The notes beneath the pieces were generated by a model, which did no database searches, had not been told where the DNA came from, and saw only the letters and a list, made by a program, of their open reading frames with translations. This document shows positions 31,453 through 64,000 of a DNA stretch of 64,000 nucleotides, one piece after another. Source of the DNA: Candidatus Sulfotelmatobacter sp. (GTDB lineage: Bacteria; Acidobacteriota; Terriglobia; Terriglobales; Acidobacteriaceae); NCBI GenBank assembly GCA_036522075.1, contig DATDGM010000140.1, positions 4,004 through 68,003 on the forward strand. Direction: 5' to 3'. Position 1 is the first letter of the stretch, and every line of letters starts with the position of its first letter. The position numbers and the translations under genes were made by a program.

Positions 31453-31568
31453 AGGTTCTAAGGGAAACAGGGACGACGATCGGGTGGATATCTTGGGCGT
31501 TCTTCAAAATCGTTGGTTCCAGCAAGTAGACGACAGAGTGGCCGGCTCAACACGGAGCGTCAAGGCAA

Positions 31569-33668
<2,100 letters not shown>

Positions 33669-33676
33669 GTTGATCA

Positions 33677-33811: not shown

Positions 33812-33868
33812 ATCTCAGTCCGTGGCACCATCGCGCATGCTAGTCTGTAGCATTATGACGATGGCCGG

Positions 33869-34035
33869 GCGTGCTCCAAGATGCCGGTACGAGACACGGC
33901 GCGTGTCTGGTTCCGGTCCCCGGCATTTCGCTTTCTACCCGCGGGATATGGTCCCGCGATTCAGATTGCTATGCGCTCTGCTTGCGTTTTCGATTTTTCC
34001 GGGAGCGCTGGCCGCCCAATCCGACGATCTGCTGA
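33869..34035 (+). repeat. Copy B of the ~170-bp direct duplication (GT2 3'-end remnant plus start of the intact LolA-like gene)
   Basis: See copy A. In one frame copy B reads MPVRDTARVWFRSPAFRFLPA, mirroring the GT2 C-terminus MKPVRDTVRVCLWSLAFRFLGA. It then runs into the true LolA-like start at 33948. Confidence 0.8.
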
Positions 34036-34577: not shown

Positions 34578-35026
34578 TGATCAAGCCCAGGGTGATTGAG
34601 CGGAGTGAAATCGAGACGCTGATTCCCCATCGCCCTCCGTTCTTGTGGATCGACCGTGTCGAAGAACTGGAGCCGGGAGTTCGTTGTGTTGCGGTGAAGT
34701 TTGTCGATCCGGCGAACCCGATTTTTGCCGGGCATTTTCCTGCCAAGCCCATTCTGCCGGGGGTTCTTCTGATCGAAGCGGTGGCCCAGACCGCTGGAGT
34801 AATGCTGGGATCATCCGCGCCGCAGGTGACTGCGGGAAGCGGGGGAGGAGTAGCCCTGCTCGCGGCCGTGAACCGCTTCAAGTTTCTCAAGCCCGTGACT
34901 CCGGGGCAAACACTTCGCGTTGAAACCAAAAAGCTAACCGAGGCTGGCCAATTGGTATGCATCGGCGGCACGGTGTGGGTAGACGGCGAGGTGGTAGCGA
35001 AGGGCGAGTTGTCGGTGTCGGCTTGA
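34577..35026 (+). CDS. FabZ/FabA-like 3-hydroxyacyl-ACP dehydratase (hot-dog fold)
   Basis: 149-aa ORF with a GTG start overlapping the previous stop by 1 nt. HRPPFLWIDRV...FAGHFPAKPILPGVLLIEAVAQ carries the catalytic His and Glu context. Confidence 0.9.
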   Translation: MIKPRVIERSEIETLIPHRPPFLWIDRVEELEPGVRCVAVKFVDPANPIFAGHFPAKPILPGVLLIEAVAQTAGVMLGSSAPQVTAGSGGGVALLAAVNRFKFLKPVTPGQTLRVETKKLTEAGQLVCIGGTVWVDGEVVAKGELSVSA

Positions 35027-35094
35027 TGGACGAGCGGTGAGCGGGCCTACGATGGAAAGCGCCACCCGATGATCCGAACATTTCAACCACGCGT

Positions 35095-37704: not shown

Positions 37705-37710
37705 TTGGGA

Positions 37711-40700
37711 ATGACGGCTTCACTCAGGCTGCTCTACCGATTGGCGAGGTGCAGGCGAGTGGGGCCGATTCTGCTGCTTCTGGCCGTTCTGCTTTTACCG
37801 CTGACAGCGGAAGCCGGCCTGCCGCGAGTCGCGATCTCGATTCCGACGGACCAGAACCTTGCCGTGGGATTGAAAGCCGCCGAGCAGTGTAACGTTCCGG
37901 AAAAATTGATCGTGCTGCCACCGCTGTCTTTCGATTTCGCGGGCGGGGAAAGCTCCGCCAGCATTCTTGAAGAGCCAGCCGTGCAGAGCGTGCCCGAAGG
38001 TGTCGAGATCTGGCTGCATGTAGTGGTGGAAGCCGGTTTACTCGCTGGGGGGGAATCCGAGCAGGAAATTACCGAGCGGGTTGATGCGTTTGTGAAATCG
38101 CTGCCTCTCTCGGCGACCGCGGTGCGTGGGCTTTTGGTGGAGATTAAAGGAGCGATGGGGGCGCCCGACCTGTTCGCGTTCGGGTTGGTGCGCCTGGCAT
38201 TAGCCGCGAAGGGCGACAACGCCGGCTTGCGGCTCGCGTTTGTTTTTCAGCCTGGGTTTGTCGGAAGTCACGGCGATATTGTAAAGAGGCTTGCCGTCTA
38301 TTCCGATCTGCTGGGAACTACCTATGCCGAGGGCTGGCGCCAGGATGCTGCGTGGATTGCCGAGCGGGCGCTGAATAAACCGGTCATTCTTAAATTAGAT
38401 GCCGGAACGTCCGCGACACCCTCGCCTTTCTTGACGGCGATGCTCGCTGCCGGCGGGACCTCGGTAGAAATTGTCTGGGCGCAGCCACCCGACGGCAAGG
38501 CCGCCGCTGCTTTGTGCGCGGCAAACACCTTCATGAGCCGTTTCATCACGAGCAATATGTTTGCGGAGGATTCCGCGGCTTCCCCGTTCAGTGTCGCGGT
38601 GGAAGGCGTGGGAAACAATGAGCACCGATGGTTCAGCGGTCCCGCGGATGTGGTGATTGTGGCGCGCGTGAATGCGAGCCCCGACTCACCGAAGACGGTC
38701 AGGTTACAGAGCGCTAAGCCGGGACCATTCGAGATCCGGTGGTACGACCCCGCGACCGGCGCCGAACTCCCGGCAGGCGAAGTGACGAAGGCTGAACATG
38801 GTTTCGCGCAAACCTGCGCCTGCACCAGCGAATACGCACTGATTTCCATCCACAAACAGAGTGAGGCCGATCAGACGCTGTACAACACAGTGGAGGTTAA
38901 GAGCGGAGTCGATCTAAGGGTGGAGGAGATTATCGCTCGCTGGCAACAGAATCGCGAAGCGCAGAAGCAGAAGCTGGAAAATTATATGGCCTCCAGTTTC
39001 ATGAGCCTCCATTTTGAAGCCACCAATCTGGGGCCGGGGTTCGACTTTTCGATGCAGCTCAAGCAATTCTTTAGCCGGAACGGCCAGATGGAACTGGCGC
39101 AAAAAGAGTTTTACATTAACGGGGTGAAGTTCGGTAAGAATCATGAGTTTCCCTTGCCGCAGATCGAGCCGGAAAAAGTGCTGACCCAGCCCCTCGAATT
39201 GAAGCTCAACGAGCGCTATGACTACAAATTGCTCGGGACCGAACAGGTGGACGGGGCCATGTGCTACGTAGTGGCAGTCGAGCCCAAGGTGCAGGACGAG
39301 GCGCTTTACAGCGGCAAGATCTGGATCGACGCCAGTACTTTTCGCGAGGTGAAGCAGTACCTGAGCCAGCGCGGCGTCAAAAGTAACGTGCTGGTAAACG
39401 TGGAGACACAGAATTTTGAGCTAGTTCGCGACGACAAGGGAAATCAATTCAACTTGCTGCACTCGATTTCCGCGCAGCAGTTGTTGAACGCCGCGGGACG
39501 TGATTTTGTGGTGCAGAGAACGGTGAAGTTTTCGGACTACGTCATCAACGCTCCGAACTTCAGTAGCAGCCTCGCGGCTGAGCATAGTTCTGAGGACCCG
39601 ATGTACCGCGACACCGACCAGGGACTGCGTTCGCTGCGGAAGAAAGCCGGCGAGCGCGTTCTCGTGGACAAGAGTGTGAAGCGCATCAAGTCTCTGGTTG
39701 CGGGCGCGATGTACGGAGGCACGTTCAACTTTCCTGTTCCATTCCTCGGCGTCAGCATCGCGGATTTTGATTTTCACCACACTGGCGCGCAACTTTCAAC
39801 CTTCTTTGCCGGGCCTATCCTGATTTCTGACTTGTCCAAGCAGTTCAGGCCCAAGTTCCGCCTCGCGCTGGATTTGTCGCTGAACGGCCTGCCCGGCCAG
39901 AACCGCATTTACGGCAATAACACGGAATTGGTGCAAGGAGAGACCTGGACATGGGAGCAAACCACCGGGGTGCGCGCCTCGTGGCAAGCCGCCACTCATC
40001 TCAGCGTAACGGGCTCCACCTACTTCTCGTATGACAACTTCCTCCGGACTAACCTGGCGGACGAGGTATACGAACTGCCGCGCAACGGATTGAACATTCT
40101 TCCGGGCATCGAAATAAAATACAACCGCAAAGGTTATGTGTTCGATGCGCAGGGGACACGGGGCGAACGCATTGACTGGAGGCGGTTCGGCTGCACTTCG
40201 CTGGCCCCACCTCCGGGTGGGTGTGGGTCGTCATCCGCCAACCCGCCGCCCGAAAACGCTTTGCTGGTTCAGCGTCCGCAAAATGCGTTCACGCTCTACA
40301 ACGCCGATTTGAACAAGGACTACTACATCGGCAAGTTCACCAAGGGCGGATGGGATCTTTCTTACTGGGGCGGAGATCAACTGGATCGCTTCTCGCGTTA
40401 CTTCCCCTCGTTTCTTGCGTCGCCGCGTCTCCACGGCATTCCCCCCGGCACGGATTCATTTGACGCCATTGCCATGGCGAACGTGCACTACGGTTTCAAC
40501 GTGATGGATTTCATGAAGGTCGATGGGATGTACGCATATGCGCGCGCGCGCAATCTGGATGAGTCGCTTCAATTCCGCAAGTTTGACGGCTTGGAGGTTA
40601 ACTTCAACACCCCTGGTCCTATGGGGACGCTGGTGCAAGGCACGGTCTCCTATGCGCTGGACGGGAATCTCGCGCGCTACAACTCCCGTTGGGCCGCCTA

Positions 40701-40728
40701 TATTTTGATCTTCAAGCCGATGCACTAA
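37711..40728 (+). CDS. Large secreted protein: N-terminal unknown domain, central LolA-like lipoprotein-sorting domain, C-terminal putative beta-barrel
   Basis: ORF 37705..40728. I prefer ATG 37711, which has GAGGG 11 nt upstream and starts just after the MMPL stop. Signal peptide is [15 protein letters not shown]. The central [47 protein letters not shown] matches the LolA_like sorting-protein pattern. The C-terminal ~400 aa are rich in alternating aromatic and Gly residues. Confidence 0.8.
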
Positions 40729-40738
40729 GGCCGGAAAT

Positions 40739-41515
40739 ATGACTGAAACAAACGTGGCTAATCGCACCGGTGATGGTAGCGAAGATCGGAAGGTCGCATT
40801 AGTCACAGGCGCCTCGGGGATTATCGGCGGCGCCATCGCGCAGGCTCTGGGAAGCGCGGGGTTCCGCGTCGCCGTGCACTATCGTCACGGGAAAGAGTCC
40901 GCGGTTGCGGTGGTCGAGCGCATCGTGGCCGCGGGCGGAGAGGCTTCGGCAGTGGAAGCCGACCTCTCCCGCCAGGAGAGTGTTGCGCCTATGTTCGAGC
41001 GCATCGAACATCAATTTGGCCCAGTCGACTACCTGGTAAATAACGCGGGCATCAACCGCGATGTGCTATTGGCTTTTATGTCGGAGGAGCAGTGGGATGA
41101 AGTAATCGACACCAATCTCCGTGGCACTTATTTGTGCTCGCGGTTGGCCCTGCCGGGCATGATGCGCCGGGGGAGTGGAGCCATTTGCAATATCGTGTCA
41201 CCCGCCGGAATTCGCGGCCAGTCCGGTCAGTGCAATTACTCGGCATCCAAAGGCGGCATGATCGCGTTCACCAAGGCTCTTTCTCGCGAGGTGGGACCGT
41301 TCCACATCCGAGTAAACGCCATCTGCCCGGGTGTGATTCCGAGCCCTATGTCCGCAAAATACATTGAGAAAGAGGAGAAGCGACTGCTTTCCGAAATCCC
41401 GCTGGGGCGGTTTGGCAAGCCTGAAGAAGTGGCTCCGCTGGTAGCGTTCCTGGGGTCCGAGGAGGCAAGTTACATCACCGGACAGGTGATCTCTGTGGAT
41501 GGGGGACTGCTGTAG
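40739..41515 (+). CDS. 3-oxoacyl-ACP reductase (FabG-like SDR)
   Basis: 258-aa ORF with the cofactor motif [16 protein letters not shown] and the catalytic YSASKGG (YxxxK). Confidence 0.95.
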
Positions 41516-41661
41516 CTTGGGTTCTTGCGAGGGACGAAAGATCACGGTCATCAGGGAGACGAAGCCACACGAAGGGCAGCTTCCAGAGGGCCTTTCAGGA
41601 GAGTTCGTGTTGATTTCGCCGGTGAGCTTTGTGGTATTCTGGGGCGTTGCAAGTGAACGAT

Positions 41662-41928
41662 ATGGCAAGCGTTAAGGAGCAACTCAAGGCCATTATATTG
41701 AAGAGCTTGCGGATCACCGACTTGACCCCCGAGGATCTGCGCGACGATCAGCCGCTGCTCGGAGGAGAACTGGAAATCGACTCCATCGACATACTCCAAC
41801 TCATTCTGGAGATTGAGAGGCATTTCGGCATCAAGCTGGTACAGGCCAACTTCAACCAGAAAAACCTCGAAAGTGTTAACGCTTTGGCGGCGATCATCGA
41901 ATCCAAAGTAGCGGAAGCAAAGACCTGA
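41662..41928 (+). CDS. Acyl carrier protein
   Basis: An internal ATG at 41662 gives an 88-aa protein with the phosphopantetheine attachment context LGGELEIDSIDILQLILEIE. Confidence 0.9.
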   Translation: MASVKEQLKAIILKSLRITDLTPEDLRDDQPLLGGELEIDSIDILQLILEIERHFGIKLVQANFNQKNLESVNALAAIIESKVAEAKT

Positions 41929-41995
41929 CATCCCAAATCTTTGGGATTGAATCCCCCCTTATCCAAGCAAAAGTTCTCCAGATCGCGGGCGGAAA

Positions 41996-42907
41996 GTGAC
42001 GCGCTGGTACGAGCACCGTTTTCATAACCCAACGGCGCTGCGGATGATATTTGTCATCATGCCGAGGCTGCCGCGCTTTCTCCATCCTCCGGTTGCGGCG
42101 GTGGTGGCGCTGATCTTCTTTTTGATCATGAAGCGGGAACGGCGCGCGGTAACCGGAAATCTGCGCCGGGTCTCGGGGAAGAGCGGGCTCGCACTGCAGC
42201 GAAAAGTTTATTGGGTTTTCTATTCTTTCTGCGACCTCATGGTTTCCTATTGTTTTGTCCCACAGGCCACACCTTCGCAACTGCTGGGCATGCTGGTGGA
42301 TTCGGAGGGGGGCGGCGCCAAGATCGACCAATGCCTGGCGGCAGGCAATGGGGTCATTGTGTGGACCGCGCATGTAGGGAATTGGGAATTCGCGTCGCGG
42401 CTGCTGGCAATTTACGGCCGGGTTAACGTGGCGCGGGTGGTTGAGGACAATCCGGCGGAGATCACACTGCGGAATTTGATGGCTAGCGAACGGTTGAAAA
42501 TTGTGGATCTCAAAGGGGGTGTGACGGCTACGATAGAACTCTTACAGGCCTTGCGTCGAAACGAGATCGTGGCGATCCAAGGAGACCGCGTTTACCAGCG
42601 TCACACTTTCGACGTGCCGTTTTTTTCCCAACCCACCAGCTTTCCGCTTGGCCCTTTTCTGCTTTCGCGGGTCTCGGGCGCGCCGGTGCTGCCCGTTTTC
42701 GTGATTCGCCGGGGTTGGCTGCGCTACCAGACTCTGATAGGAGATTTGATCCCGGCGGTTCCGTCACGGGTCACTAGCGGTGACGACGATGCCGGCTTGC
42801 ACGAGGCTATGCGCCAGGCGGTCAGCTTTCTGGAAAAAACATTGACCACTTATTACGATCAGTGGATGAATTATTTCGATTTTTGGCCGGTTGCCTCTCG
42901 GGACTGA
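41996..42907 (+). CDS. LpxL/HtrB-family lysophospholipid (lipid A-type) acyltransferase (ApeD-like)
   Basis: 303-aa ORF with a GTG start and an N-terminal hydrophobic anchor. It has the WTAHVGNWEF (Hx4E/D) motif and IQGDR. Confidence 0.85.
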   Translation: MTRWYEHRFHNPTALRMIFVIMPRLPRFLHPPVAAVVALIFFLIMKRERRAVTGNLRRVSGKSGLALQRKVYWVFYSFCDLMVSYCFVPQATPSQLLGMLVDSEGGGAKIDQCLAAGNGVIVWTAHVGNWEFASRLLAIYGRVNVARVVEDNPAEITLRNLMASERLKIVDLKGGVTATIELLQALRRNEIVAIQGDRVYQRHTFDVPFFSQPTSFPLGPFLLSRVSGAPVLPVFVIRRGWLRYQTLIGDLIPAVPSRVTSGDDDAGLHEAMRQAVSFLEKTLTTYYDQWMNYFDFWPVASRD

Positions 42908-53830: not shown

Positions 53831-55951
53831 ATGAACGAAAATGTGGGACGTTTTGTGCGTCTCGGGGTGGGCCTCTTGAGCTTGGTGGTTTTGGGATGTG
53901 TGCTCACGGGATTTGCAGCCAAGCCCGCTCAACACGGCATCCCGCTGCCCACCGATTGGAGTCACAGCCATCTCATCTTCTCGCGGCCGGCTTCGGTCGA
54001 GCAGGCCATGCGCTTGCAAAAGGATCCGCGCTTCGAGCAGCAACTCTATCGCCGCGCCCAGGCGTTGAGGCTTCCTTTCGCCGGGACGGACGGTGGTGAC
54101 CTAATTTCTTCCCAACTACGGCTCCCGCTCCGCCGCGGTGGCTTGAAGGGGCTTTGGGAAGAGAGTCTGGGTGCCGGCGCAACCGTTGGAGCGGTTAACT
54201 TCCCGGCCAAATTCTCGTTCAACAGCAGCGTGGCCAACTGCGGCGGTGCGACGACTCCAGATTTCGTTGTCTACAGCACCGGCTTGGCTGGTTCCGGAAC
54301 CCAAGCCAGCATCATTGCCTACGACAACCTCTATGTTGGGTGCACCGGGATTGTGCCCTCCACCTATTGGGCATACAATACCGGCGGCCAGATCTTGACT
54401 TCGCCAGACTTCTCCTTAGATGGTACGCAGGTGATGTTCGTCCAGGCCACTGGCGGCATCGGAAGCTTTGTGTTGTTGAAGTGGAAGGCCTCCGCGACTG
54501 AAACCGTAGGCGCCCCTGGCGTTCCGACGAGTGTCTCTAACGCTTCGTATTCAGGGTGCGCAGCCCCATGCATGACGTCGATCCAACTCCAGGACACCAG
54601 CCACGTTCCAACCAACGACGTAACTTCTTCCGTGTACTATGACTTTTCTGGCGACACCGCATGGGTGGGCGATAGCCGCAACTGGCTCCACCGTTTCAAC
54701 CCGGTTATTAAGGGGACTCCGGCAGAGGTAGTATCCTCCTGGCCCGTGCAACTGAACCCAGGCAATGCCACGGCTCTAGCCAGCCCAGTTTATGATCAGG
54801 TTTCGGGGAACGTTTTCGTCGGTGACGCGGGCGGGTTTTTCTATCGCGTAAGCGCGTCTACCGGCGCCGTGACTGCGTCCAGCCAAATTGGTCACGGCAC
54901 GGGTGCCGGCGCGGGCATCGTGGCGGGTCCGATCGTCGATTCCACAGCCGAAGTGGCTTACGTGTTTGCGTCGAATGACGGCGTTGCGCCCTCCGCCGCC
55001 GTATACCGGTTCGCTTCAGGTTTCGCTACGGGAACCGCGGGTGCAAAGGCAATCGTTGGAACGAGTGCGGCCGCTCCCGAGCCGCTTTACGAAGGAGCTC
55101 TCGACAGCGCCTACGAGAACTCAGTCAACGCCGCAGGCAATCTCTATGTCTGCGGACACACGAGCGGCCGTCCCTTCTTATACCAGGTGCAGATCACGTC
55201 CGGCGGCGTCCTAGGGACGGTGACTACCGGTCCGCCCATTGCCACTGCTGGCACAGGGTGCTCTCCTGTCACCGATATCCTCAACCGCAACGCGACGGGA
55301 GGGCGAACCGAATGGATCTTCGCCGGGGTCCAAAACAACGGCAGAGAAACCCCTTGCGGCGGCGGCGGCTGCGTGATGAACTTTAAAGACACCCCCTGGC
55401 AGCCCTTGACTGCATATAGCGTCGGTCAAGAGATTGTCGACAGCAACTTTCATGTCCAAATGGTGATCACGGGGGGAACCTCGGCGGCAGCCGCCCCCAC
55501 TTGGAGCGCGAGCTTGGGCGCCCCACCCTTGGACGAGACCGCAGACGGCGGGGTCACGTGGGTGAACCTGGGCCTTACAGCCGGGACGACGCCCGTGGCC
55601 TGGGTGCCAGGTCATAGGTACGCTGTGGGCAACTTTATCGAAGACACGAACTCTGCGATTGAAGTCGTGACGGCCATATTCGGTGCTAGCCACTCCGGCG
55701 GGGTCCAGCCGACATGGAATACCACCTTCGGACAGACCACTGCTGATAGCCAGGTCACCTGGACCAACGCGGGCCCGGCGACCGGCGCCCTTGCCTCTGC
55801 AGGCGGAAGCAGCGCCATCATTGTCGACAACACCGTTACTAGCGGTGTGTCCGGCTCTCAGATCTATTTCTCAACACAGGCCAATCAGACGTGTGGGGCA
55901 ACGCCAAATGTTGGCTGTGCAGTGCAAGCGTCGCAATCGGCGTTAAAATAA
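53831..55951 (+). CDS. Large secreted protein, beta-propeller-like (PQQ/BamB-type repeats) with two C-terminal Trp-rich ~60-aa repeats
   Basis: I prefer ATG 53831 (GGAG upstream), giving MNENVGRFVRLGVGLLSLVVLGCVLTGFAA as a signal anchor. Motifs such as GNVFVGDAGGFFYRVSASTGAV resemble propeller blades. The tandem C-terminal repeats end in VTWVNLG and VTWTNAG. Confidence 0.75.
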   Translation: MNENVGRFVRLGVGLLSLVVLGCVLTGFAAKPAQHGIPLPTDWSHSHLIFSRPASVEQAMRLQKDPRFEQQLYRRAQALRLPFAGTDGGDLISSQLRLPLRRGGLKGLWEESLGAGATVGAVNFPAKFSFNSSVANCGGATTPDFVVYSTGLAGSGTQASIIAYDNLYVGCTGIVPSTYWAYNTGGQILTSPDFSLDGTQVMFVQATGGIGSFVLLKWKASATETVGAPGVPTSVSNASYSGCAAPCMTSIQLQDTSHVPTNDVTSSVYYDFSGDTAWVGDSRNWLHRFNPVIKGTPAEVVSSWPVQLNPGNATALASPVYDQVSGNVFVGDAGGFFYRVSASTGAVTASSQIGHGTGAGAGIVAGPIVDSTAEVAYVFASNDGVAPSAAVYRFASGFATGTAGAKAIVGTSAAAPEPLYEGALDSAYENSVNAAGNLYVCGHTSGRPFLYQVQITSGGVLGTVTTGPPIATAGTGCSPVTDILNRNATGGRTEWIFAGVQNNGRETPCGGGGCVMNFKDTPWQPLTAYSVGQEIVDSNFHVQMVITGGTSAAAAPTWSASLGAPPLDETADGGVTWVNLGLTAGTTPVAWVPGHRYAVGNFIEDTNSAIEVVTAIFGASHSGGVQPTWNTTFGQTTADSQVTWTNAGPATGALASAGGSSAIIVDNTVTSGVSGSQIYFSTQANQTCGATPNVGCAVQASQSALK

Positions 55952-55965: not shown

Positions 55966-56136
55966 ATGTCTATAGATCATCCAACTTCCGAACAGCCGTG
56001 CGCAGCGGCCAACCCAAAAAAGCCATACGAGAAGCCAGCCTTCCGCCACGAACAGGTTTTTGTCACTACCGCCTTGTCCTGCGGCAAAGTCGGGTCGGGG
56101 ACGAGCGCGTGCAGCATACACAGCAGTGCGTCATAA
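55966..56136 (+). CDS. Candidate RiPP precursor peptide (56 aa)
   Basis: MSIDHPTSEQPCAAANPKKPYEKPAFRHEQVFVTTALSCGKVGSGTSACSIHSSAS. It starts 14 nt after the upstream stop and ends 2 nt before the peptidase ATG. It has a leader-like YxxPxF motif and a Gly/Ser/Cys-rich C-terminal core. Confidence 0.65.
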   Translation: MSIDHPTSEQPCAAANPKKPYEKPAFRHEQVFVTTALSCGKVGSGTSACSIHSSAS

Positions 56137-56138
56137 AA

Positions 56139-56681
56139 ATGCCAAGACACACTGCGGCCGAATTGCACGTTCTAAAATGTGAACTGGCGGGTGAGGTTTT
56201 GCGCTCGTCGGGAAGTTTGCGGCTCCGCGTGACCGGATGGAGTATGTTGCCCACGATTTTTCCTGGCGATACGCTGATGATTGAACAAGCTGACAGTGAT
56301 CGCGTCGTCAAGGGCGATATCGTGCTATTCCGCTGGGATCGTCGGCTTTTTGTCCATCGGGTTTGTGGGAAGTGCGGCAGCGCTGGAGATATGCAGATCG
56401 TCACCCGGGGCGACGGTATGTCTCAGCCCGATCCGCCGGTCTCAAGCTCCGACTTGCTAGGCAAAGTTTCTTTCGTAGTCCGAGACGGGCGCTGTGTCGA
56501 GCCCGGCAAGCGTCTCGGCCTTTCCGGAAGCGCAGTAGCGGCTCTGGTCCGCCGTTCCTCGTCAGCCGCCCGGGTAGTTGTGGGAGTTCACAAGATGAGC
56601 CGACGTTCACCGACGCTGGCTTTACAGGAGCTGGGATCAAACGAACTGGTCATCCAGGAGCCTCATCCTTGCCAGAGTTGA
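56139..56681 (+). CDS. S24/S26-family serine peptidase (signal-peptidase/LexA-like)
   Basis: An internal ATG at 56139 of ORF 55998..56681 gives 180 aa. The motif is RVTGWSMLPTIFPGDTLMIEQADSDRVVKGDIVLF (nucleophile Ser in GWSM). Confidence 0.8.
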   Translation: MPRHTAAELHVLKCELAGEVLRSSGSLRLRVTGWSMLPTIFPGDTLMIEQADSDRVVKGDIVLFRWDRRLFVHRVCGKCGSAGDMQIVTRGDGMSQPDPPVSSSDLLGKVSFVVRDGRCVEPGKRLGLSGSAVAALVRRSSSAARVVVGVHKMSRRSPTLALQELGSNELVIQEPHPCQS

Positions 56682-57487
56682 CCACCGCCGTCGATTGCTA
56701 CCACCTCACCATTGAAATTGGAGGCATGCCGGTTCGCGTCAACACCACCGACGCGGCTTTTCTAGGCATGCTGCAGGATCGCTACGCAGGCTTCTTAAGT
56801 TCTTCGCAGTGTGCAGCGGTCGAATTTGACGTGGATTTGACCAGGCAGGGCGTCGGCGACCCGGATGCGGCAGTTCGTGTGAGTCAGCGCTCGGGGGAGT
56901 GGGCCCTCGATCGCGGCGATTTTCGCGCCGAATGGCGGCCGGCGTCGCGCACCGGCAGAATTCGCCAAACTGCCAACCCCTATTCGATCGATGCGGTTCT
57001 CCGCATCCTGCACACCCTCGTCCTGGCGCAAGAGCGGAGCGGGTTTCTGTTGCACGCCGCCAGCGCCATCCGCAACGGCAAGGCGTTTCTGTTTGCCGGA
57101 GTTTCCGGAGCAGGTAAGACCACGATTTCAAGACTTGCCCCTCCTGACACAACTCTTCTTACCGATGAAATCTCCTACGTACGGAAGCAAAATTCCGCCT
57201 ACATCGCTTTCGGCACTCCATTTACAGGGGAACTCGCCAAGCTAGGCGAAAATGTTTCCGCTCAGATTTCGAGGCTATATCTGCTCGCTCAGGGCCCGGA
57301 GAATCGGATCGACCCGGTACCTGCTGGCCAGGCTGCCCGTGAATTGCTCGCCAATGTACTTTTCTTTGCCGAAGACCAGGAATTGGTACAGAAGACATTC
57401 CATGCGGCTTGCGAATTCGTGAGCCGCGTGCCGGTCTCCAGACTGACCTTCGTTCCCGATGCCAGAGTATGGGAGTTGATCGCATGA
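56678..57487 (+). CDS. HprK-related P-loop kinase
   Basis: This frame of ORF 56363..57487. The likely start is TTG 56678, in a TTGA overlap with the peptidase stop. HAASAIRNGKAFLFAGVSGAGKTTISRL carries an HPr-kinase-like Walker A. Start is uncertain. Confidence 0.75.
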   Translation: MTTAVDCYHLTIEIGGMPVRVNTTDAAFLGMLQDRYAGFLSSSQCAAVEFDVDLTRQGVGDPDAAVRVSQRSGEWALDRGDFRAEWRPASRTGRIRQTANPYSIDAVLRILHTLVLAQERSGFLLHAASAIRNGKAFLFAGVSGAGKTTISRLAPPDTTLLTDEISYVRKQNSAYIAFGTPFTGELAKLGENVSAQISRLYLLAQGPENRIDPVPAGQAARELLANVLFFAEDQELVQKTFHAACEFVSRVPVSRLTFVPDARVWELIA

Positions 57488-57843
57488 GCAGACTTTACAT
57501 TGCACGCAATACTCGAGTAGCAGCCCGGAACCTCGACGGCGAGATGATGATCATGTCCGGCAAGGATTCGACTCTTTTTACGCTCAACAAAACCGCTACC
57601 ATTATCTGGCAGGCCGCCGACGGCGCCACTCCCCTTGACGAGATTGTCGAACGCCGGATTTGTCCGGAATACGAAATTGAACCGGCCGCCGCGTTACAAG
57701 ACGCGGAAACCCTGGCACTCGAACTCGCGTCCCACGGCATAGTAGATGTTTCGGAGAAGCCGATCGTTTCCGGAAGTGCGGATGGAAAGCCGCCTGCTGG
57801 GGGGCAGCGATCTGGAGAGCAACGATCTGGAGAGCAACGATGA
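57484..57843 (+). CDS. PqqD-family peptide-binding protein (RiPP recognition element)
   Basis: ATG 57484 is in an ATGA overlap with the kinase stop. ARNLDGEMMIMSGKDSTLFTLNKTATIIWQAADGATPLDEIV...DAETLALELASHGIV fits the PqqD pattern. The C-terminal tail is repetitive (GGQRSGEQRSGEQR). Confidence 0.85.
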   Translation: MSRLYIARNTRVAARNLDGEMMIMSGKDSTLFTLNKTATIIWQAADGATPLDEIVERRICPEYEIEPAAALQDAETLALELASHGIVDVSEKPIVSGSADGKPPAGGQRSGEQRSGEQR

Positions 57844-58964
57844 GCGGCTTGATGGAAGAAGTCACCACCAAGGCTCTCGCCCTCGGCATTCCGATGAGCG
57901 TGCAGCTCGACATTACCTACCGCTGCAACGAGCGATGTGTGCATTGCTATCTCGATCATGACGATCATGGCGAAATGACCACTGCAGAAATCAAGCACTT
58001 GCTCGATGAAATGGCCGATGCGGGCGTTTTCATACTTACCATCAGCGGTGGCGAGATTCTCATGCGCAAGGACTTCTTTGAGATTCTGGAACACGCGCGC
58101 CGCCGCACCTTTTGCATTAAGCTCAAGACCAATGCCGTGCTTATCCGCCAACGCGAGGCGGTCCGCATCCGTGATCTGGGCGTGGAGTCTGTTCAGATCA
58201 GTATTTACTCGCATCGGCCTGAAGTCCATGACGCCATCACCCTGGTTCCAGGCTCGCTCAAGCGCTCTCTCGACGCTATTCGTTTCCTCAAGTCTCAGGG
58301 GCTGAAGGTCAGGATTGCCAATGTCCTGATGATTCAGAACATGCAGGACTACAAGGGCGTGCGTGCGCTCGCCGAAGAACTGGGTGTGGAATTCACCATG
58401 GATCCGACCGTCACCCCCATGATGGATGGCGACCGCTCCGTTCTGAAACTTGGCATTGACACTGCCGCACTACAACGCGTGTTTCGCGATGAAGCGCTGG
58501 TGGGCGACGCGGAGGAATTCTGCGCTGTCAAGGGGCCCCCAGGCGACGATGAACTGCAATCTCTGCCGTGCAGTGCCGGGCATACTGCCGCCTACGTCTC
58601 GCCTTACGGCGACGTCTATCCCTGCGTTCAGTTCCCCCTCAGCTGCGGCAATGTGCGGCAACAGCGCTTCGTGGACATCTGGCGGGATTCCGAACAGCTG
58701 AAAGAAGTCCGCGCAATCCGCTTGAAAGATCTCTCTGGCTGTTCGCAATGCATGCACGGTACAAGTTGCTCACGCTGCCCCGGCCTGGCATACATGGAAG
58801 GCAATATGCGCGGTCCCTCCACGCAGGACTGCGAGAGGTCGTTCGCCAGAACTGGAATCCCCTCCGTCAATCTGCAAGCGAAGATGTTGCAGTCGAAAAA
58901 GCCCTCCGCCGCCAGCCTCGTCCAGATACGCATGCAGCCTGCCGTCGCAACAGTATCGGCGTAG
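57840..58964 (+). CDS. Radical SAM / SPASM-domain peptide maturase
   Basis: 374-aa ORF in an ATGA overlap with the PqqD stop. It has DITYRCNERCVHCY (CxxxCxxC) and ISGGE. The C-terminal Cys-rich block CSAGHT...YPCVQFPLSCGN...CSQCMHGTSCSRCPG is typical of SPASM auxiliary clusters. Confidence 0.9.
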   Translation: MSGLMEEVTTKALALGIPMSVQLDITYRCNERCVHCYLDHDDHGEMTTAEIKHLLDEMADAGVFILTISGGEILMRKDFFEILEHARRRTFCIKLKTNAVLIRQREAVRIRDLGVESVQISIYSHRPEVHDAITLVPGSLKRSLDAIRFLKSQGLKVRIANVLMIQNMQDYKGVRALAEELGVEFTMDPTVTPMMDGDRSVLKLGIDTAALQRVFRDEALVGDAEEFCAVKGPPGDDELQSLPCSAGHTAAYVSPYGDVYPCVQFPLSCGNVRQQRFVDIWRDSEQLKEVRAIRLKDLSGCSQCMHGTSCSRCPGLAYMEGNMRGPSTQDCERSFARTGIPSVNLQAKMLQSKKPSAASLVQIRMQPAVATVSA

Positions 58965-59150
58965 AGAATGCTCGTGTGGAGGCAACCGCCTCGGCTCCCC
59001 CCTGGGCGAAGCCTGGCGGATCGTCCACCGAACCCCGCTCTAGCCCTGCGACGGCGAAAGCGCCATTCGACGAGAAACTCGCATATGGAAGCGATGGTGT
59101 CGCGCACTCATCCCACCCGCTTCAGGTAGACTGCCCCCCGAGGCTCAGCT

Positions 59151-60347
59151 GTGCCCGAGACCGTTCCCGAAATCGCGAGTACGCCAGGCGCGCAATGCGA
59201 CGTGGAGTGGACGCTGCTGCAGGCCGCCTGTTCCGCAAACGCCAGCCTGGAAAGCTCTAGTCAGCAGAAAAACCGCCTCCGTGGCCTGCTTGAGAATCGG
59301 TTAAACTGGGAATCTCTGCCGCAATTGGCCGAACGGCACGGCGTTGGACCCTTGCTCTACAAGGCCGTGTCGTCACTGGGCAGTGACGCGCCAGCCGGCC
59401 CCTCTTTACTGCAACAGCACTACCAAACCAATCTGCACCGCACTCTGTTTCTCGCTCGCGAACTGATCCGCATCCTCGATCACTTCGATTCCCTGGCCAT
59501 CGACGTCTTGCCCTACAAGGGCGTGGCCTTGGCCGAGATGCTCTACGGTGACATTGCGATGCGCCAGGCCGGCGACATCGATCTGCTGATTCGGCCGCAG
59601 GATTTGACCCGCATCAGGCACGCGCTGGCGGAACTGGGATACAAACCCCACGAGCAGTTTTCAGAAGCCGAGGAGCGCGCCTATCTCCGCTCTGGATATG
59701 AATGCGCCTTCGATAGCAACCTGGGACGCAATCTTCTGGAAGTCCAGTGGGCGCTGCAGCCGCGCTTCTATGCCGTCGATTTCGAGATGGAATCTCTGTT
59801 TCGCCGCGCCGTCACGGTCTGCGTCGCGAGTCGAAATATGAAAACACCCTCGCTGGAGGATCTTTTCCTCATCCTCTCTCTGCACGCGGCCAAGCATGTG
59901 TGGGGGCGGTTGATCTGGCTCTGTGACATTTCCCAGATTCAAAAATTGCCGGCACTCAAGTGGGATTGGATCGGCGAGACGGCGCACTCGCTCGGAATTG
60001 CGCGCATTCTGCAGGTCACGCTGCTGTTGACGAAGATAGTGCTGGGGGCGCCAATTCCGGCCCCTGCCGAAAAACTTCTGCGTCCCGATCAGGCAGCTGT
60101 CGCACTGGCGAACGAGATTGCCCCCAAGCTCGGCAACCGCTCGCCGCACGATGTGGAGTCTTTCTCTTACTTTCACCTCATGATGCGCTTGCGGGAACGA
60201 AAAGCAGATCGCGTTCGCTTTCTTAAACGGCTTGCTTTCACACCAGGGCCTGGCGAATGGAAGTCAATTCGTTTACCGGCACCGCTGTTTCCCATGTACC
60301 GCCTGGTTCGGTTGGCGCGCCTGGCCGGCAGGGTGGCTAAGCTGTAA
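59151..60347 (+). CDS. Nucleotidyltransferase-family protein (NTP_transf_5-like)
   Basis: 398-aa ORF with a GTG start. YKGVALAEMLYGDIAMRQAGDIDLLIRPQDLTRIRHALAELGY matches the uncharacterised nucleotidyltransferase family that often sits beside PqqD/HprK-like genes. Confidence 0.75.
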   Translation: MPETVPEIASTPGAQCDVEWTLLQAACSANASLESSSQQKNRLRGLLENRLNWESLPQLAERHGVGPLLYKAVSSLGSDAPAGPSLLQQHYQTNLHRTLFLARELIRILDHFDSLAIDVLPYKGVALAEMLYGDIAMRQAGDIDLLIRPQDLTRIRHALAELGYKPHEQFSEAEERAYLRSGYECAFDSNLGRNLLEVQWALQPRFYAVDFEMESLFRRAVTVCVASRNMKTPSLEDLFLILSLHAAKHVWGRLIWLCDISQIQKLPALKWDWIGETAHSLGIARILQVTLLLTKIVLGAPIPAPAEKLLRPDQAAVALANEIAPKLGNRSPHDVESFSYFHLMMRLRERKADRVRFLKRLAFTPGPGEWKSIRLPAPLFPMYRLVRLARLAGRVAKL

Positions 60348-61533
60348 CCCGCCGAGCGCTCGCGTTCCAATTCATCAAGTACAAAGTGCACATCGCCCCG
60401 CTGGCCAGCAAAGGGACCACCATGCCAACCCGCACGCTGCCTGAGTGTTTGGAGAAGTAGCCAACCAGCTCCGGCAGTAAAGCGCCTCCAAGATTTGCCA
60501 CAGCGAACATGACGGAACCCACCCGCGATGCTGCCTCGCCAAATTCCCGCGATAACAGGGAAATCGTGATGGGATAGACGGCCGCCAGGCCGAAACCAGC
60601 CAGCATAGCGCCTCCCAAAACTCCGAGCACTGCATGGGACAGGAGCAGCCACGTGATTCCCGTGCAAGCCATCAGAAGTCCGGCACGGGCCAGCGCGATC
60701 TCCTCAACCCTCTTGAGCAGCCGGGATGCCAGCCACCTTCCGACCATCAGTGCGGAATAAAAAAAAGACGGACTCATCAAAGCCATGGCGAGCGACAACG
60801 TTCCCAGGCTTTTGGCATACGAGGCGATCCATCCACCAAATGAATTTTCCACTCCCACGTAAAGGAAGAAAAGTGTTGCCAGCAACAAGACAGGGTTGCT
60901 TCTCCAATCGACCGGCGCAGCCATGCTTGCGCCTTTCCCGCCGCTGGCTAACGGTTCGACGATGCGACGAGGCATCGCGGCAATGCCAGCAGTGACCAGG
61001 AACAACACGGCCGCGAAGGCTGCCAATAGCGATGGCACAAGGTGTTCCCGCGCCGCTGCGGCCACTAAAAACGGACATGCTACCGCGCCTGCGCTCCAGG
61101 AAAAATTCAGCAGGTTCAAAGCTGCGCTGCGCCGCAGCGGATGCACCTCGGCGACCAGCAAATTTGCGGCCGGCACTGCAACGCCAAAGCCGAAGCCGTA
61201 AAGCCCAATGCAAGCCGCCCCCAGGACTCGTGCACTGTAAGGCAGCCCCGCGACTCCCACCGCCATTGCCAGCAGGCCGGCTTTCATGGCAAAGCGATAT
61301 CCCCAGCGCGATACGCTAAAGCCAGAGAGCGCCACCCCCACCGTCGACGCCAGGAATTGCACCGTGAAGAGTGAACCCGCCTGCGCATAGTCCAGCGACC
61401 ACCTCGCCGAAAGCGTTGGCAGAAGCGGCCCCAACAGCACCGTTACAGTTCCGATGGGAACAAACGCGGCATGGGCTGCCAGCGTGAGAGGTCGTGAAGA
61501 ATCCGCGCCTTCCGGCGTCTGAGAAGGGTTCAT
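60337..61533 (-). CDS. MFS transporter
   Basis: ORF 60337..61608. The likely start is Met at 61533 (MNPSQTPEG...). It has ~12 TM helices. It is convergent with the nucleotidyltransferase gene and overlaps its 3' end by 11 nt. Confidence 0.85.
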   Translation of the reverse strand: MNPSQTPEGADSSRPLTLAAHAAFVPIGTVTVLLGPLLPTLSARWSLDYAQAGSLFTVQFLASTVGVALSGFSVSRWGYRFAMKAGLLAMAVGVAGLPYSARVLGAACIGLYGFGFGVAVPAANLLVAEVHPLRRSAALNLLNFSWSAGAVACPFLVAAAAREHLVPSLLAAFAAVLFLVTAGIAAMPRRIVEPLASGGKGASMAAPVDWRSNPVLLLATLFFLYVGVENSFGGWIASYAKSLGTLSLAMALMSPSFFYSALMVGRWLASRLLKRVEEIALARAGLLMACTGITWLLLSHAVLGVLGGAMLAGFGLAAVYPITISLLSREFGEAASRVGSVMFAVANLGGALLPELVGYFSKHSGSVRVGMVVPLLASGAMCTLYLMNWNASARRVTA

Positions 61534-61664
61534 TCGTTGGTCTGTCACTCCGAGCGGTGCGATGGAAACCTTGCACGCCCGCGCTACTAGCGCGCCCTGA
61601 AAACGCACCTCTATAACAACAGAGGAGTTTCACCCCGAGCGGTAGCGCACTTAATCAGAGTACT

Positions 61665-62711
61665 CTAGCTGCCAGCCGCTCTCGCGGTAGACTCCCTGAT
61701 CACCAGTTCAGGCTTAATCGCAATTTCTGACGGACAGTCGTCTCTCCCTGCGATTCGTTCCAACAGAGTCTGCGCCGCAACTTGCCCCATGCGTGCGAGA
61801 GGTTGCCGCACAGTGGTAAGAGTCGGAGTGTTGAAGGCCGCGCTCGGAATGTCGTCGAAGCCCATCACCGACACGTCCTCCGGCACACGCCGGCCCAGCT
61901 CCTGCAATGCGCGAATCGCCCCAATCGCGGAAATGTCATTGTACGCAAACAGGGCGGTGAAAGGCTTGTTACGCGCCAAAAGATGCTTCGCAAAAGGATA
62001 ACCCAGCTGCGGCGTCGGATCGTCAATATCAATCTGCACGGTCAATTCCGGGTCAATCGGCACTCCGATTTTCTTCGCGACCTCGCAGATTGCATTCCAG
62101 CGGTCCTTCGAGTCCGAACTGAGTGGATTGCCCCTCATGAAGGCGATTTGCTTGTGTCCCAGGCTGGCCAGGTGAGTCAGCGCCAGGGTAGCAGCTTGTA
62201 CGTGATCCAACACTACATTCGTGACTCCTTTGATTTTCTGGTGCCCAGCAACCGCCACCGTCGGCAGAGAAGGAGCCTCATGCACAGTCGTATCCACCGT
62301 AATGAACCCCTCGACGCCTCTCTGCAGCAAGAGTTGGGAATACTGGCTCAGCAAATTCTCATCATGGCGATGCGCCACGGTCAGGAAGAAATAGTCCATT
62401 TTTCTCAAGTGAGCCTCAATGCCGCTGATCACCATCGATCCGTAAGAGTCGCCGATTTCCTCGGCGATCACTCCGATCGTATAGGTCCGCTTGTTGCGCA
62501 GGGTGCGGGCAAAAAAGTTGGGGCGGTAATTCAGTTCTTTTGCTGCGGCATGAACGCGGTTCTTGGTCTCCTGGGGAATGGAACGCGCAGAAGGCGAATT
62601 ATTAAGAACGGCGGAAACCGTGCCGGGAGTCAGCCCCACATACGCAGCCACGGCTTTAAGCGTAACCGTCGTCGTTTTGGGGCCGAAGCCGGGTCTCTTG
62701 GTTGGGACCAT
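61665..62711 (-). CDS. LacI-family transcriptional regulator
   Basis: 348-aa ORF with an N-terminal HTH ([24 protein letters not shown]) and a periplasmic-binding-protein-like sugar-binding core ([18 protein letters not shown]). Confidence 0.95.
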
Positions 62712-62801
62712 GAGTCCGCTCAGATCTCGGAGTCTAGGTTTCGGCGCATCTTATTTTTTCTCATCTCGAGCAAGGCTCCGACCCCGTCCGCCGCCCCGAT
62801 T

Positions 62802-64000
62802 TTATGCCTTCGCATACCGCTCGCTGTTGGGTTTCGATCCGCTCAACGCGAAATACAGAATATAGAGATAGCAAATGACAGGCAGAAAGAAGGCGTGATG
62901 GATACCGATTCGGTCGGCAATCGCACCCTGCGCCACCGGAATAATCGCTCCGCCCACAATCGCCATAATCATGATGCCTGACCCGTCTCCGGTGAGCGGG
63001 CCCAGTTCAGCCACTCCCAGCGTGAAAATGCTGGGGAACATAATGGAATTAAAGAACCCGACCAGGATGATGCTCCACATAGCGAAGTGTCCGGTCGTCA
63101 GCATGGAGATTGCAACCAACACGCTCGTGGATATGGCGCAGATGCCGAGCAACATTCCAGTATTCGCAATGGCCTTGCCTCCGCGCAGCGCAGCCACTCC
63201 GGCGATCGTCGCCGCTGCGATCGCCACAAGTATAAACAGCGGTCGTCCTGCCACCACCAGCCACGCAAGCCAGGTCAGATTCGGCACCCCCGGCTGATAT
63301 CCCGGGGGCATATGGCTTTCGATTGGGTAGGAGAGCAAAATCAAGGCGATACTTAGGGCGGTTACCAGGGCCATATATTTTGCCTTCGCGCCCCCCAAAA
63401 AATTCGACCCAATAAAGCGTCCCAGCATGGCGCCGCCCCAATAGAAGGCGACGAAACTCGCGGCAACTTTTTCAGTCAGCCCGCCAATGTCCGACTGGCT
63501 GAAGTAGTTGACCAGAAAACTGCCAATCGAAACCTCGGCTCCTACATACACGAAAATGGCGATAGCGCCGAAGATCAAGCTGGGATGCTTCCAGATGGAA
63601 TCATTCACCTTTTCGCCCACTTTGCGCTGAGCGTGTTCGATTTTCGGTAACTTGAAACTACCGATCGCGACGGCCAACACGACCAGAGTAATGCCAAGGC
63701 CTACATAGGGCGTCTTGACGGTCGCGGCCTCGTGCAATCGATAAGCCTGCAGCGCGTTCGGCGCCAGGGCGCGAATCTCGTCGATGGCCTTAGGAGCCGC
63801 ACTCAAAATAAAGACGCCGCCGAAAAAAGGTGCCAGAAAGGTACCAAAGGAATTGAAGGCCTGTGTCAAATTCAGGCGGCTTGATGCAGTCTCAGGTTTC
63901 CCCAGCACCGTGACGTATGGATTAGCCGCCACCTGTAAGACGGTGATGCCTGCTGCAAGAACGATGAGCGCACCCAAGAACAACGGATAGGACGGCACAC
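62802..64000 (-). CDS. FucP/GluP-type sugar:H+ symporter (MFS); 5' end beyond the window
   Basis: The open frame reaches the window edge. LQVAANPYVTVLGKPETASSRLNLTQAFNSFG is the conserved fucose/glucose-galactose permease block, which normally sits ~100 aa into the protein. It lies downstream of the LacI gene on the same strand. Confidence 0.85.
   Translation of the reverse strand, partial: VPSYPLFLGALIVLAAGITVLQVAANPYVTVLGKPETASSRLNLTQAFNSFGTFLAPFFGGVFILSAAPKAIDEIRALAPNALQAYRLHEAATVKTPYVGLGITLVVLAVAIGSFKLPKIEHAQRKVGEKVNDSIWKHPSLIFGAIAIFVYVGAEVSIGSFLVNYFSQSDIGGLTEKVAASFVAFYWGGAMLGRFIGSNFLGGAKAKYMALVTALSIALILLSYPIESHMPPGYQPGVPNLTWLAWLVVAGRPLFILVAIAAATIAGVAALRGGKAIANTGMLLGICAISTSVLVAISMLTTGHFAMWSIILVGFFNSIMFPSIFTLGVAELGPLTGDGSGIMIMAIVGGAIIPVAQGAIADRIGIHHAFFLPVICYLYILYFALSGSKPNSERYAKA

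Follow-up and report, generated by a model that had tools for sequence, protein, structure and literature searches.

A candidate RiPP cluster of Acidobacteriota in which LPP-like phosphopeptide genes are joined by a gene for a radical SAM/SPASM maturase

Introduction

What kind of peptide is made by a compact gene cluster in which a short open reading frame (ORF) is followed by genes for a peptidase, an HprK-like kinase, a PqqD-type protein, a radical S-adenosylmethionine (SAM) enzyme and a nucleotidyltransferase? The question is raised by a stretch of 64,000 nt from Candidatus Sulfotelmatobacter sp. (assembly GCA_036522075.1, contig DATDGM010000140.1, positions 4,004–68,003 of the forward strand), the whole of which is referred to below as the window. 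A first-pass annotation had described these six genes as an operon for a peptide synthesized by ribosomes and modified post-translationally (RiPP), in a combination that matched no characterised class. Here we propose, with a probability of roughly 70%, that the cluster, which comprises seven genes and belongs to Acidobacteriota of the class Terriglobia, represents a phosphopeptide pathway similar to that of the linear polyphosphorylated peptides (LPPs), to which a radical SAM/SPASM maturase has been added by acquisition.

Gene organization of the cluster

The seven genes, together with the transporter gene that converges on them, are located in the window as follows.

53831–55951, + strand: beta-propeller protein of about 706 aa; the longest ORF runs from a GTG at 53750; N-terminal signal or anchor helix
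55966–56136, + strand: precursor peptide of 56 aa; ATG at 55966, TAA at 56134–56136
56139–56681, + strand: S26B/SipW-type soluble serine peptidase resembling signal peptidase I (SpI); predicted leader peptidase
56669–57487, + strand: ScmC/HprK-like P-loop protein; predicted peptide Ser kinase; start at TTG 56669 or TTG 56678
57484–57843, + strand: discrete PqqD-type RiPP recognition element (RRE), PF05402
57840–58964, + strand: radical SAM/SPASM peptide maturase, PF04055 and PF13186
59151–60347, + strand: NTP_transf_5 (PF14907) enzyme of nucleotidyltransferase fold; GTG start; predicted to tailor the phosphopeptide
60337–61608, − strand: transporter of the major facilitator superfamily (MFS), PF07690 (3e-25); convergent, overlapping the nucleotidyltransferase gene at its 3′ end; candidate exporter of uncertain membership

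The four gene junctions given in the first-pass annotation were found exactly so in the sequence and in the list of ORFs. The stop codon of the precursor gene is separated by 2 nt from the peptidase ATG at 56139, and the TGA of the peptidase gene (56679–56681) overlaps a TTG at 56678 in the tetranucleotide TTGA; the start picked by the gene caller for the kinase, TTG 56669, likewise lies inside the peptidase gene. The kinase/PqqD and PqqD/radical SAM junctions are formed by ATGA at 57484–57487 and at 57840–57843, respectively. The nucleotidyltransferase gene, which had been counted as a sixth translationally coupled gene, starts 186 nt beyond the stop of the radical SAM gene (58964). Because of this spacer, translational coupling is limited to the five genes from the precursor to the radical SAM enzyme. 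Components that go beyond the earlier description are the propeller gene (53831–55951), two conserved Cys residues in the precursor and a likely leader cleavage after Thr34. Scans for promoters and terminators gave no more matches than were obtained in shuffled sequence. At its 3′ end, shortly ahead of the radical SAM start, the RRE gene contains a perfect 15-bp tandem duplication (CGATCTGGAGAGCAA, twice; 57808–57837), which encodes the low-complexity tail QRSGEQRSGEQR.

The precursor peptide family

Homologues of the precursor were searched for in a collection of 5.8 billion proteins, from which 160 matches were retrieved and 120 of these were listed and tallied. The homologues are 51–66 aa long, or exceed this length where the start codon has been called further upstream. 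In the peptide of the window, the N-terminus is variable and is followed by the leader KKPYEKPAFRHEQVFVT (residues 18–34) and by the predicted core TALSCGKVGSGTSACSIHSSAS (residues 35–56). In the family, the leader reads KKPYEKPxFRxExVFVT and the conserved block extends beyond it as KKPYEKPxFRxExVFVTTAL(S)CGK; past this block lie about eight hypervariable residues, a second Cys, about six variable residues and a terminal Ser. Residues K18, Y21, E22, K23, P24, F26, E29, V31, F32, T34, A36, L37, C39, G40, K41 and C49 are invariant in the family alignment.

Among the listed homologues, Cys39 is kept in 120/120 and Cys49 in 119/120. The interval between the two is nine residues in 100 of the 119 sequences, and seven residues lie beyond the second Cys in 102 of them. 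All 120 homologues end in Ser, as do the precursors of 79 of the 80 species loci described in the next section, the sole exception being the decayed locus L057. The core tails are unique in 112 of the 120 homologues and have a high content of Ser, Thr, Gly and Ala; across these and the 80 species loci, Asp and Glu together make up about 1%. Judged by these alignments, the small ORF represents a genuine gene family, in which a constant leader is joined to a core that varies, as is classic for RiPPs. The view of the locus as a RiPP-type operon is upheld, its conserved precursor carrying a lasso-like YxxP leader.

Distribution and conservation of the gene order

In order to compare the genomic contexts, one genome per GTDB species was surveyed. 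Precursor relatives were found in 154 genomes, and the gene content of the best 80 of these 154 loci was determined by searching every ORF of those loci with the window proteins (phmmer). The carriers of the 80 loci are almost all metagenome-assembled genomes (MAGs) of Acidobacteriota (Candidatus Sulfotelmatobacter, Acidobacteriaceae, Terriglobia and the peat MAG SbA1), with a few bins labelled Verrucomicrobiia or Binatia; all carriers are MAGs. The genes for the peptidase, the kinase, the RRE and the radical SAM enzyme directly follow the precursor gene, in identical order, in 66 of the 80 loci (hereafter full loci), and 61 of these 66 also contain the nucleotidyltransferase gene. Since 160 precursor homologues exist and the order recurs in 66/80 loci, the gene set lies far beyond chance. 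The first-pass annotation had named the synteny of the radical SAM and kinase genes in related genomes, and the adjacency of a small YxxP ORF, as checks on its reading; the neighbourhood proved to be conserved across related Acidobacteriota, with the enzymes following the precursor in the loci just counted.

L005 and L077, the most divergent loci, have other flanks, and in them the nucleotidyltransferase gene is located upstream on the opposite strand, the remaining unit being intact. Decaying clusters were also seen: L057 has a frameshifted or extended precursor gene and fragmented enzyme genes, and L073 has lost the kinase, the RRE and the radical SAM enzyme, keeping a peptidase fragment and the nucleotidyltransferase.

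Leader, peptidase and RRE

The LPP clusters of Bacillota (Popov et al., Nat Commun 2026; PMC13381572) consist of LppA/K/B/S/D/N. The LppA leader has the pattern YxxPxVLxHQxIxFET and is followed by xxS. LppS, a soluble homologue of archaeal-type signal peptidases, needs the RRE LppB and cuts after T-1; the HprK-like LppK polyphosphorylates Ser3 of the core; LppN, an NTP transferase, was inactive in the host used (PMC13381572). Sequences of LPP peptidases, RREs and precursors for the comparisons below were taken from Supplementary Data 1 of that study.

The peptidase of the window is soluble, without a membrane anchor, and matches PF00717 (1e-8), PF10502 (1.5e-5) and the archaeal-type signal peptidase I model TIGR02228 (53.4 bits; cutoff 51.85). 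Its Ser35/His73/Asp98 triad is invariant in an alignment with RRE-linked SpIs and is spaced much as in LppS (S29/H68/D93), with 38 versus 39 residues from Ser to His and 25 in both proteins from His to Asp. In phmmer comparisons the nearest proteins were the RRE-linked SpIs of cluster 3 in the sequence similarity network (SSN) of Popov et al. (5e-19 to 2e-14), with the LPP SpIs of cluster 1 at 9e-14 to 7e-6 and the housekeeping SipW far off (2e-3). SSN cluster 3 is uncharacterised and RRE-linked, and its members come from Acidobacteriota, Myxococcota and candidate phyla (PMC13381572). Uncharacterised RRE-linked SpI-like peptidases (SSN clusters 3, 4 and 6–9) are also recorded from Planctomycetota, Bacteroidota, Chloroflexota and candidate phyla (PMC13381572).

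The RRE is a PqqD-family protein (PF05402, 2e-11), the best NCBIfam and PDB relatives of which are lasso B1 proteins (NF033530, 8e-6; TfuB1, 6jx3, 5.5e-4; TbiB1, 6e-3). Its residues Asn35 and Asp73 align with the Asn and Asp of five LPP RREs, equated with N33 and D70 of LppB, which hold the Tyr and Pro of the YxxP leader (PMC13381572). The same positions are occupied by Gly/Gln in a paeninodin-type B1 protein of the WxxP kind.

When 56 members of the precursor family were aligned with 12 LPP precursors by hhalign, VFVT came to lie opposite xFET in a weak but specific match (E 6e-4, probability 28%, two one-residue gaps), in a register that is uncertain by 1–2 residues. The two most divergent members of the family read VFET at this position. 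Because VFVT aligns with the FET| cleavage site of LPPs and the divergent members have VFET, the leader is most likely cut after the invariant Thr34 (VFVT|TALSCGK), which would release a core of 22 residues, give or take 1–2 residues in the register.

The lasso relatives of the RRE raise the question of whether the locus might be one part of a split lasso system, with the cyclase and the B2 protease encoded elsewhere in the genome. Such a system would account for the YxxP leader, and a kinase together with a nucleotidyltransferase is typical of paeninodin-type tailoring. The core, however, lacks an acidic acceptor, which rules out a lasso macrolactam, and an SpI-like peptidase takes the place of B2. 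Neither an asparagine synthetase-like cyclase nor a transglutaminase-like B2 protease was found among the window ORFs scanned (the cluster genes, the flanking ORFs and the 20 largest ORFs of the first 48 kb) or within 8–9 kb in the related loci L001, L003, L005 and L007, in agreement with the first-pass annotation, which had reported a cluster lacking both. A split lasso system is extremely improbable.

The radical SAM enzyme and the conserved Cys pair

The radical SAM enzyme contains the domains Radical_SAM (PF04055, 1e-22) and SPASM (PF13186, 2e-11), with the CX3CX2C motif at residues 29–36 and SPASM-region Cys residues at positions 244, 262, 301, 304, 310, 313 and 331. None of the NCBIfam equivalog cutoffs is attained: even the top models, AhbD, NirJ2, MftC, WgkB, GeoRSP, StsB and ScmE, are matched far below them. 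The nearest solved structure is that of the thioether-forming SkfB (1.5e-12), followed by a nucleoside decarboxylase and then by SuiB, CteB, PqqE and MoaA. Thioether chemistry is favoured because the gene is coupled to that of the RRE through ATGA and because the precursor has two conserved Cys residues with hypervariable residues between them. Most likely, the enzyme would form one or two intramolecular thioether crosslinks from Cys39 and Cys49.

A different product would result if the pathway were of the ordinary LPP type. In that case the peptide would be a linear phosphopeptide, its Cys residues would form a disulfide after export and the radical SAM enzyme would carry out a non-crosslinking reaction (epimerisation or a change at the C-terminus) or serve another substrate. 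Several Bacillota LPP precursors indeed have two core Cys residues with no radical SAM enzyme among the recorded table columns (RREs, precursor, lasso genes), so the Cys pair of the window family may be a disulfide and the enzyme may be doing something else. MftC, which acts on a peptide C-terminus, is among the high-scoring full-length matches of the enzyme, and the C-terminal Ser is invariant. These points are offset by the overlap of the radical SAM start with the RRE stop, by the presence of the enzyme in all 66 loci that have the peptidase, the kinase and the RRE, and by the fixed C-x9-C spacing with a hypervariable interior, which is typical of cores crosslinked by radical SAM enzymes; SkfB as the nearest solved relative points the same way. 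We consider a linear product unlikely. The peptide FETVISNCVPPSFPGQYPGGNICVHEDG, from Supplementary Data 1 of Popov et al., is an example of a two-Cys LPP core of Bacillota.

Kinase, nucleotidyltransferase and the candidate phosphorylation site

The putative kinase has the Walker A motif GVSGAGKTT and carries the precomputed Pfam annotation PF27840 (ScmC). Its matches to TIGR04249 (ScmC, 1.7e-10), HprK_rel_A (6e-7) and PEPCK_ATP (6e-4) all fall under the curated cutoffs; TIGR04249, the best NCBIfam match, reaches 40.7 bits, its cutoff being 125. The assignment as an HprK-like kinase in the first-pass annotation is tentative, every one of these scores being sub-threshold. A homologue search with this protein was filled by relatives at least 74% identical and is uninformative on distant relatives. 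A tblastn search of plasmids with an LPP SpI, by which an annotated LPP cluster was sought together with a sequence for LppK, returned no match.

The nucleotidyltransferase-fold enzyme is assigned to PF14907 (9e-54) and has a DID motif at residues 142–144. Of the profiles proposed at the outset for searches, PF00717, PF05402, PF04055, PF13186 and PF14907 were each matched by the respective product.

Where could such enzymes act? In the register of LPP precursors, position 3 of the core is a Leu in the window precursor and Ser38 is its neighbour. Across the 80 species loci the residue at position 38 is Ser in 64, Ala in 7, Thr in 6, and Gly, Asn or Phe in 1 each. HprK homologues of the paeninodin type phosphorylate a C-terminal Ser and show hardly any specificity beyond it, and the PF14907-type enzyme PsmN of pseudomycoidin attaches hexoses to that phosphate (PMC8498205). 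In view of these two activities, the C-terminal Ser56 appears to be the best-supported site of phosphorylation or of a further adduct, with Ser38 as a weaker candidate. A C-terminal site, as suggested in the first-pass annotation, is plausible because that Ser is invariant (120/120 homologues, 79/80 loci).

The beta-propeller partner and loci without maturation enzymes

The most faithful neighbour of the precursor gene is the propeller gene, which is taken as the seventh component of the cluster. It is located upstream of the precursor in 62 of the 66 full loci and in 12 of 13 loci devoid of the enzymes, and in 49 of 59 loci its stop codon lies 9–29 nt ahead of the ATG of the precursor. The propeller protein of the window has no match in Pfam or NCBIfam. 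More than 1,300 homologues exist, some of which are flagged PF13570 (PQQ-like propeller, after pyrroloquinoline quinone), and variants of about 900 aa carry PF11999 (ice-binding-like/DUF3494; homologues P0142 and P0153–P0168). An AlphaFold2 (AF2) model (mean predicted local distance difference test score, pLDDT, 76; predicted template modelling score, pTM, 0.78) consists of a helix at residues 4–29, an all-beta propeller and beta-rich C-terminal repeats. A Foldseek search with this model returned generic propellers of the WD40/BamB type only, with no functional lead. The C-terminal tail of the propeller (QTCG...GC...SQSAL) was considered as a look-alike of the peptide core and rejected, the hhalign match having an E-value of 0.35 and lying in a different region. 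The variants of about 900 aa with PF11999 probably share contigs with kinases of the cluster.

In 13 of the 80 loci, the precursor gene has no maturation enzyme gene within 10 kb. These orphan loci are:

L019, L048 (6248–11923), L050, L051, L053, L063, L070, L074, L075, L079, L080, L084 and L087

All of them except L075 have the propeller gene. In 9–10 of the orphans the context is conserved and includes genes for an extracytoplasmic function (ECF) sigma factor, an RskA-like anti-sigma factor, the propeller, the peptide and OmpA-family proteins. The tails of the orphan peptides are nearly constant, far less variable than those of the full clusters, and TGTQAQCSLNIKVS recurs among them. L031, a full cluster, and the orphan pair L050 come from one and the same MAG.

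Such a close association with a propeller gene is also what would be expected if the peptide were a crosslinked small subunit, a ligand or a cofactor precursor of an extracytoplasmic beta-propeller protein. The gamma subunit of quinohemoprotein amine dehydrogenase (QHNDH) is crosslinked by the radical SAM/SPASM enzyme QhpD, and PQQ works with propeller dehydrogenases, so that analogies for a subunit and for a cofactor exist. Both the short distance between the two genes and the persistence of the pairing among the 13 loci without enzymes fit this explanation, as does the PQQ-like flag of some propeller homologues. A hypervariable core would, however, be unusual for a cofactor or a structural subunit, no redox or cofactor motifs were found, and the Foldseek matches of the propeller are generic; moreover, the radical SAM enzyme scores far from the PqqE and MftC cutoffs and a route for peptide export is not evident. 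Taken together, these observations make a subunit or cofactor role quite improbable.

Within the LPP-like reading, a tentative proposal can be made about the role of the propeller, which we regard as rather unlikely. The crosslinked, phosphorylated peptide and a membrane-anchored propeller may constitute an envelope module of a peptide and its partner, related either like a ligand to its sensor or like a small subunit to its holo-protein; one copy would accompany the maturation enzymes, whereas the orphan copies would be wired to the ECF sigma/anti-sigma and OmpA-family genes and their peptides matured in trans. If true, Acidobacteriota would possess a novel type of envelope signalling or surface system that is based on a RiPP, and the peptide would not be a free antibiotic-like product. 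The pairing of precursor and propeller, which extends even to the enzyme-less ECF sigma loci, in any case points to a biological role that can be tested.

Neighbouring genes of the window

Downstream of the cluster, a convergent block of MFS, LacI-type regulator and MFS genes (60337–63998, − strand) is kept in 55–58 of the 80 loci, a homologue of the first MFS gene being the direct downstream neighbour in 58; the downstream MFS gene is missing from the divergent loci L005 and L077. Because of the latter, the link with the MFS genes may reflect mere inherited synteny, and the MFS protein could be an exporter or simply an inherited neighbour. A MacB-type ATP-binding cassette (ABC) system located upstream of the cluster is kept in 8/80 loci only.

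Further upstream, the region 23971–42907 contains a separate lipid or aryl-polyene-like gene set with a DUF2062-methyltransferase gene, two ketosynthase-like genes and a KAS III-like gene, as well as genes for a 699-aa radical SAM protein bearing an HMPTM zinc ribbon, for an MMPL transporter and for two proteins that resemble LolA and a lipid A acyltransferase, respectively. Genes for a P450 and a fatty-acid desaturase are located at 19470–21885, and those for two large Ser/Thr protein kinases, one with fused tetratricopeptide (TPR) repeats and the other with an N-terminal DNA-binding domain (Trans_reg_C), at 12830–18763.

Proposed pathway

The following sequence of events would be consistent with the features described above. 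The RRE would bind the 56-aa precursor through the YEKP motif of its leader and present it both to the radical SAM/SPASM enzyme, which would introduce one or two thioether-type crosslinks from Cys39 and Cys49, and to the kinase, which would phosphorylate Ser, possibly more than once, with Ser56 as the best and Ser38 as a weaker candidate. The SpI-like peptidase would then remove the leader, most likely after Thr34, as the alignment with the LPP FET| site suggests. The phosphate may be extended by the PF14907 enzyme with a sugar or a nucleotide-derived group, as by PsmN in pseudomycoidin. The 22-residue hypervariable product probably acts extracellularly, likely in connection with the co-transcribed propeller protein.

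Several observations weigh against this reading. The kinase is the weakest domain call of the cluster, depending as it does on sub-threshold profile matches. Its AF2 model has a pLDDT of 46 and is unusable, so that an HprK/PEPCK fold is not confirmed; the low confidence is due to a shallow alignment (sequences of at least 75% identity). A profile search of the PDB with the kinase gave the PEPCK P-loop alone (E 0.16). The alignment of the leader with LPP precursors has an hhalign probability of only 28% with its register uncertain, and several two-Cys LPP precursors of Bacillota have no radical SAM enzyme among the table columns recorded. The chemistry of LppN is unproven even for LPPs, as the protein was inactive in the only LPP experiment. 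Part, or even much, of the synteny reflects vertical inheritance within one clade, since most loci share the downstream MFS-LacI-MFS block. No dedicated exporter is evident, and one of the MsbA type is located within 8–9 kb neither in the window nor in L001, L003, L005 or L007. Finally, all of the modifications are predicted from sequence.

If the proposal is correct, the LPP logic of an SpI-like peptidase with an RRE, an HprK-like kinase and an NTP_transf_5 enzyme extends beyond Bacillota to a dominant, hard-to-culture phylum of soil and peat. LPP-type machinery would there have been recombined with a radical SAM/SPASM enzyme, and the predicted class of crosslinked and phosphorylated or glycosylated products was not found in the literature searched; neither the peptide motif nor the gene combination was mentioned there. 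The family is sizeable: it occurs in 154 species genomes, and relatives of the kinase number in the thousands among metagenome proteins. As the precursor logic is clean (leader, C-x9-C-x7 and C-terminal Ser), the cluster is a good target for heterologous expression, which is needed because all carriers are MAGs, and for defining what the PF14907 enzyme transfers.

Comparison with known systems

The domain table of LPP clusters contains TIGR02228, PqqD, NTP_transf_5, TIGR02203 (MsbA-like exporter) and TIGR04249; the last is among the commonest models (67/126), and the HprK-like kinase is named as a conserved core gene (PMC13381572). LPPs are stated to be restricted to Bacillota, and a radical SAM enzyme is nowhere mentioned (PMC13381572). 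The window cluster shares with LPP clusters the TIGR02228 peptidase, a discrete PqqD-type RRE, NTP_transf_5 and, as a fourth enzyme family matched at sub-threshold scores, the TIGR04249-type kinase. It also shares the Asn/Asp pair of the RRE and the lack of a macrolactam cyclase, and its precursor has a variable core and a leader of the form YxxP...F(E/V)T that probably corresponds to that of LPPs. In contrast to LPP clusters, it has a radical SAM/SPASM gene coupled to that of the RRE and thus departs from the linear product of LPPs; its precursor family has two invariant Cys residues and an invariant C-terminal Ser, whereas the equivalent of Ser3 is Ser in 64/80 loci only. It further differs in having a beta-propeller partner and no MsbA-type (TIGR02203) exporter, in its acidobacterial host and in its peptidase, to which SSN cluster 3 is nearer than LPP cluster 1. 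The dataset of Popov et al. contains no member of the window family. Since the exporter, the linear product and the Ser3 site are all at variance with LPPs, we do not regard the cluster as a member of that class.

With the lasso peptides paeninodin and pseudomycoidin (PMC8498205), the cluster has in common a YxxP/WxxP leader and a discrete RRE, a putative HprK homologue and an enzyme of nucleotidyltransferase fold. It differs from them in possessing a radical SAM enzyme and in lacking the cyclase, the B2 protease and the Asp/Glu acceptor, which in lasso peptides is at position 7–9.

By their NCBIfam names, the SynChlorMet (SCM) models include ScmC (TIGR04249), the best match of the window kinase, and the radical SAM/SPASM proteins ScmE and ScmF (TIGR04249–04251). 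ScmC is HprK-related, and the SCM cassette includes a PqqD-family chaperone. To our knowledge, neither SCM nor GeoRSP cassettes have an identified precursor or experimental data, and a literature search on SynChlorMet and TIGR04249-type accessions found nothing. The scores of the window proteins are well removed from these families (ScmC, 40.7 versus a cutoff of 125; ScmE, 103.5 versus 400; ScmF, 68.5 versus 400), and the same holds for the radical SAM enzyme and GeoRSP (TIGR04302–04303; 117.9 versus 400). Unlike the cassettes, the window cluster has one radical SAM enzyme and not two, with a peptidase and a nucleotidyltransferase in addition.

Sactipeptide and ranthipeptide maturases (SkfB, AlbA, CteB) resemble the window enzyme in combining a radical SAM domain with a SPASM/twitch region, and the precursor cores carry Cys residues in both cases. 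The RRE of the window is discrete, however, and not fused to the maturase, the SkfB, AlbA and StsB scores are well below their cutoffs, and the predicted pathway would join phosphorylation with SpI-type cleavage. PQQ and mycofactocin are likewise distant: PqqE scores 94 bits versus 381 and MftC 137.6 versus 265, and the precursor ends in x-Ser, with neither the conserved Glu/Tyr motif nor a C-terminal Gly-Val-Tyr.

The profiles thus place the cluster in none of the lasso, SCM, PQQ or mycofactocin systems, the cyclase and B2 being absent from the regions scanned and the equivalog cutoffs being missed. It would instead function as a phosphopeptide pathway of the LPP or paeninodin type combined with a maturase of the sacti-/ranthipeptide type. 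The statement of the first-pass annotation that the combination is uncharacterised has to be narrowed: the peptidase, kinase, RRE and nucleotidyltransferase match the families of the experimentally studied LPP core (PMC13381572), the kinase at sub-threshold scores, and NCBIfam models for SCM exist, whereas the radical SAM enzyme, the Cys pair, the propeller partner, the phylum and the missing ABC exporter are new.

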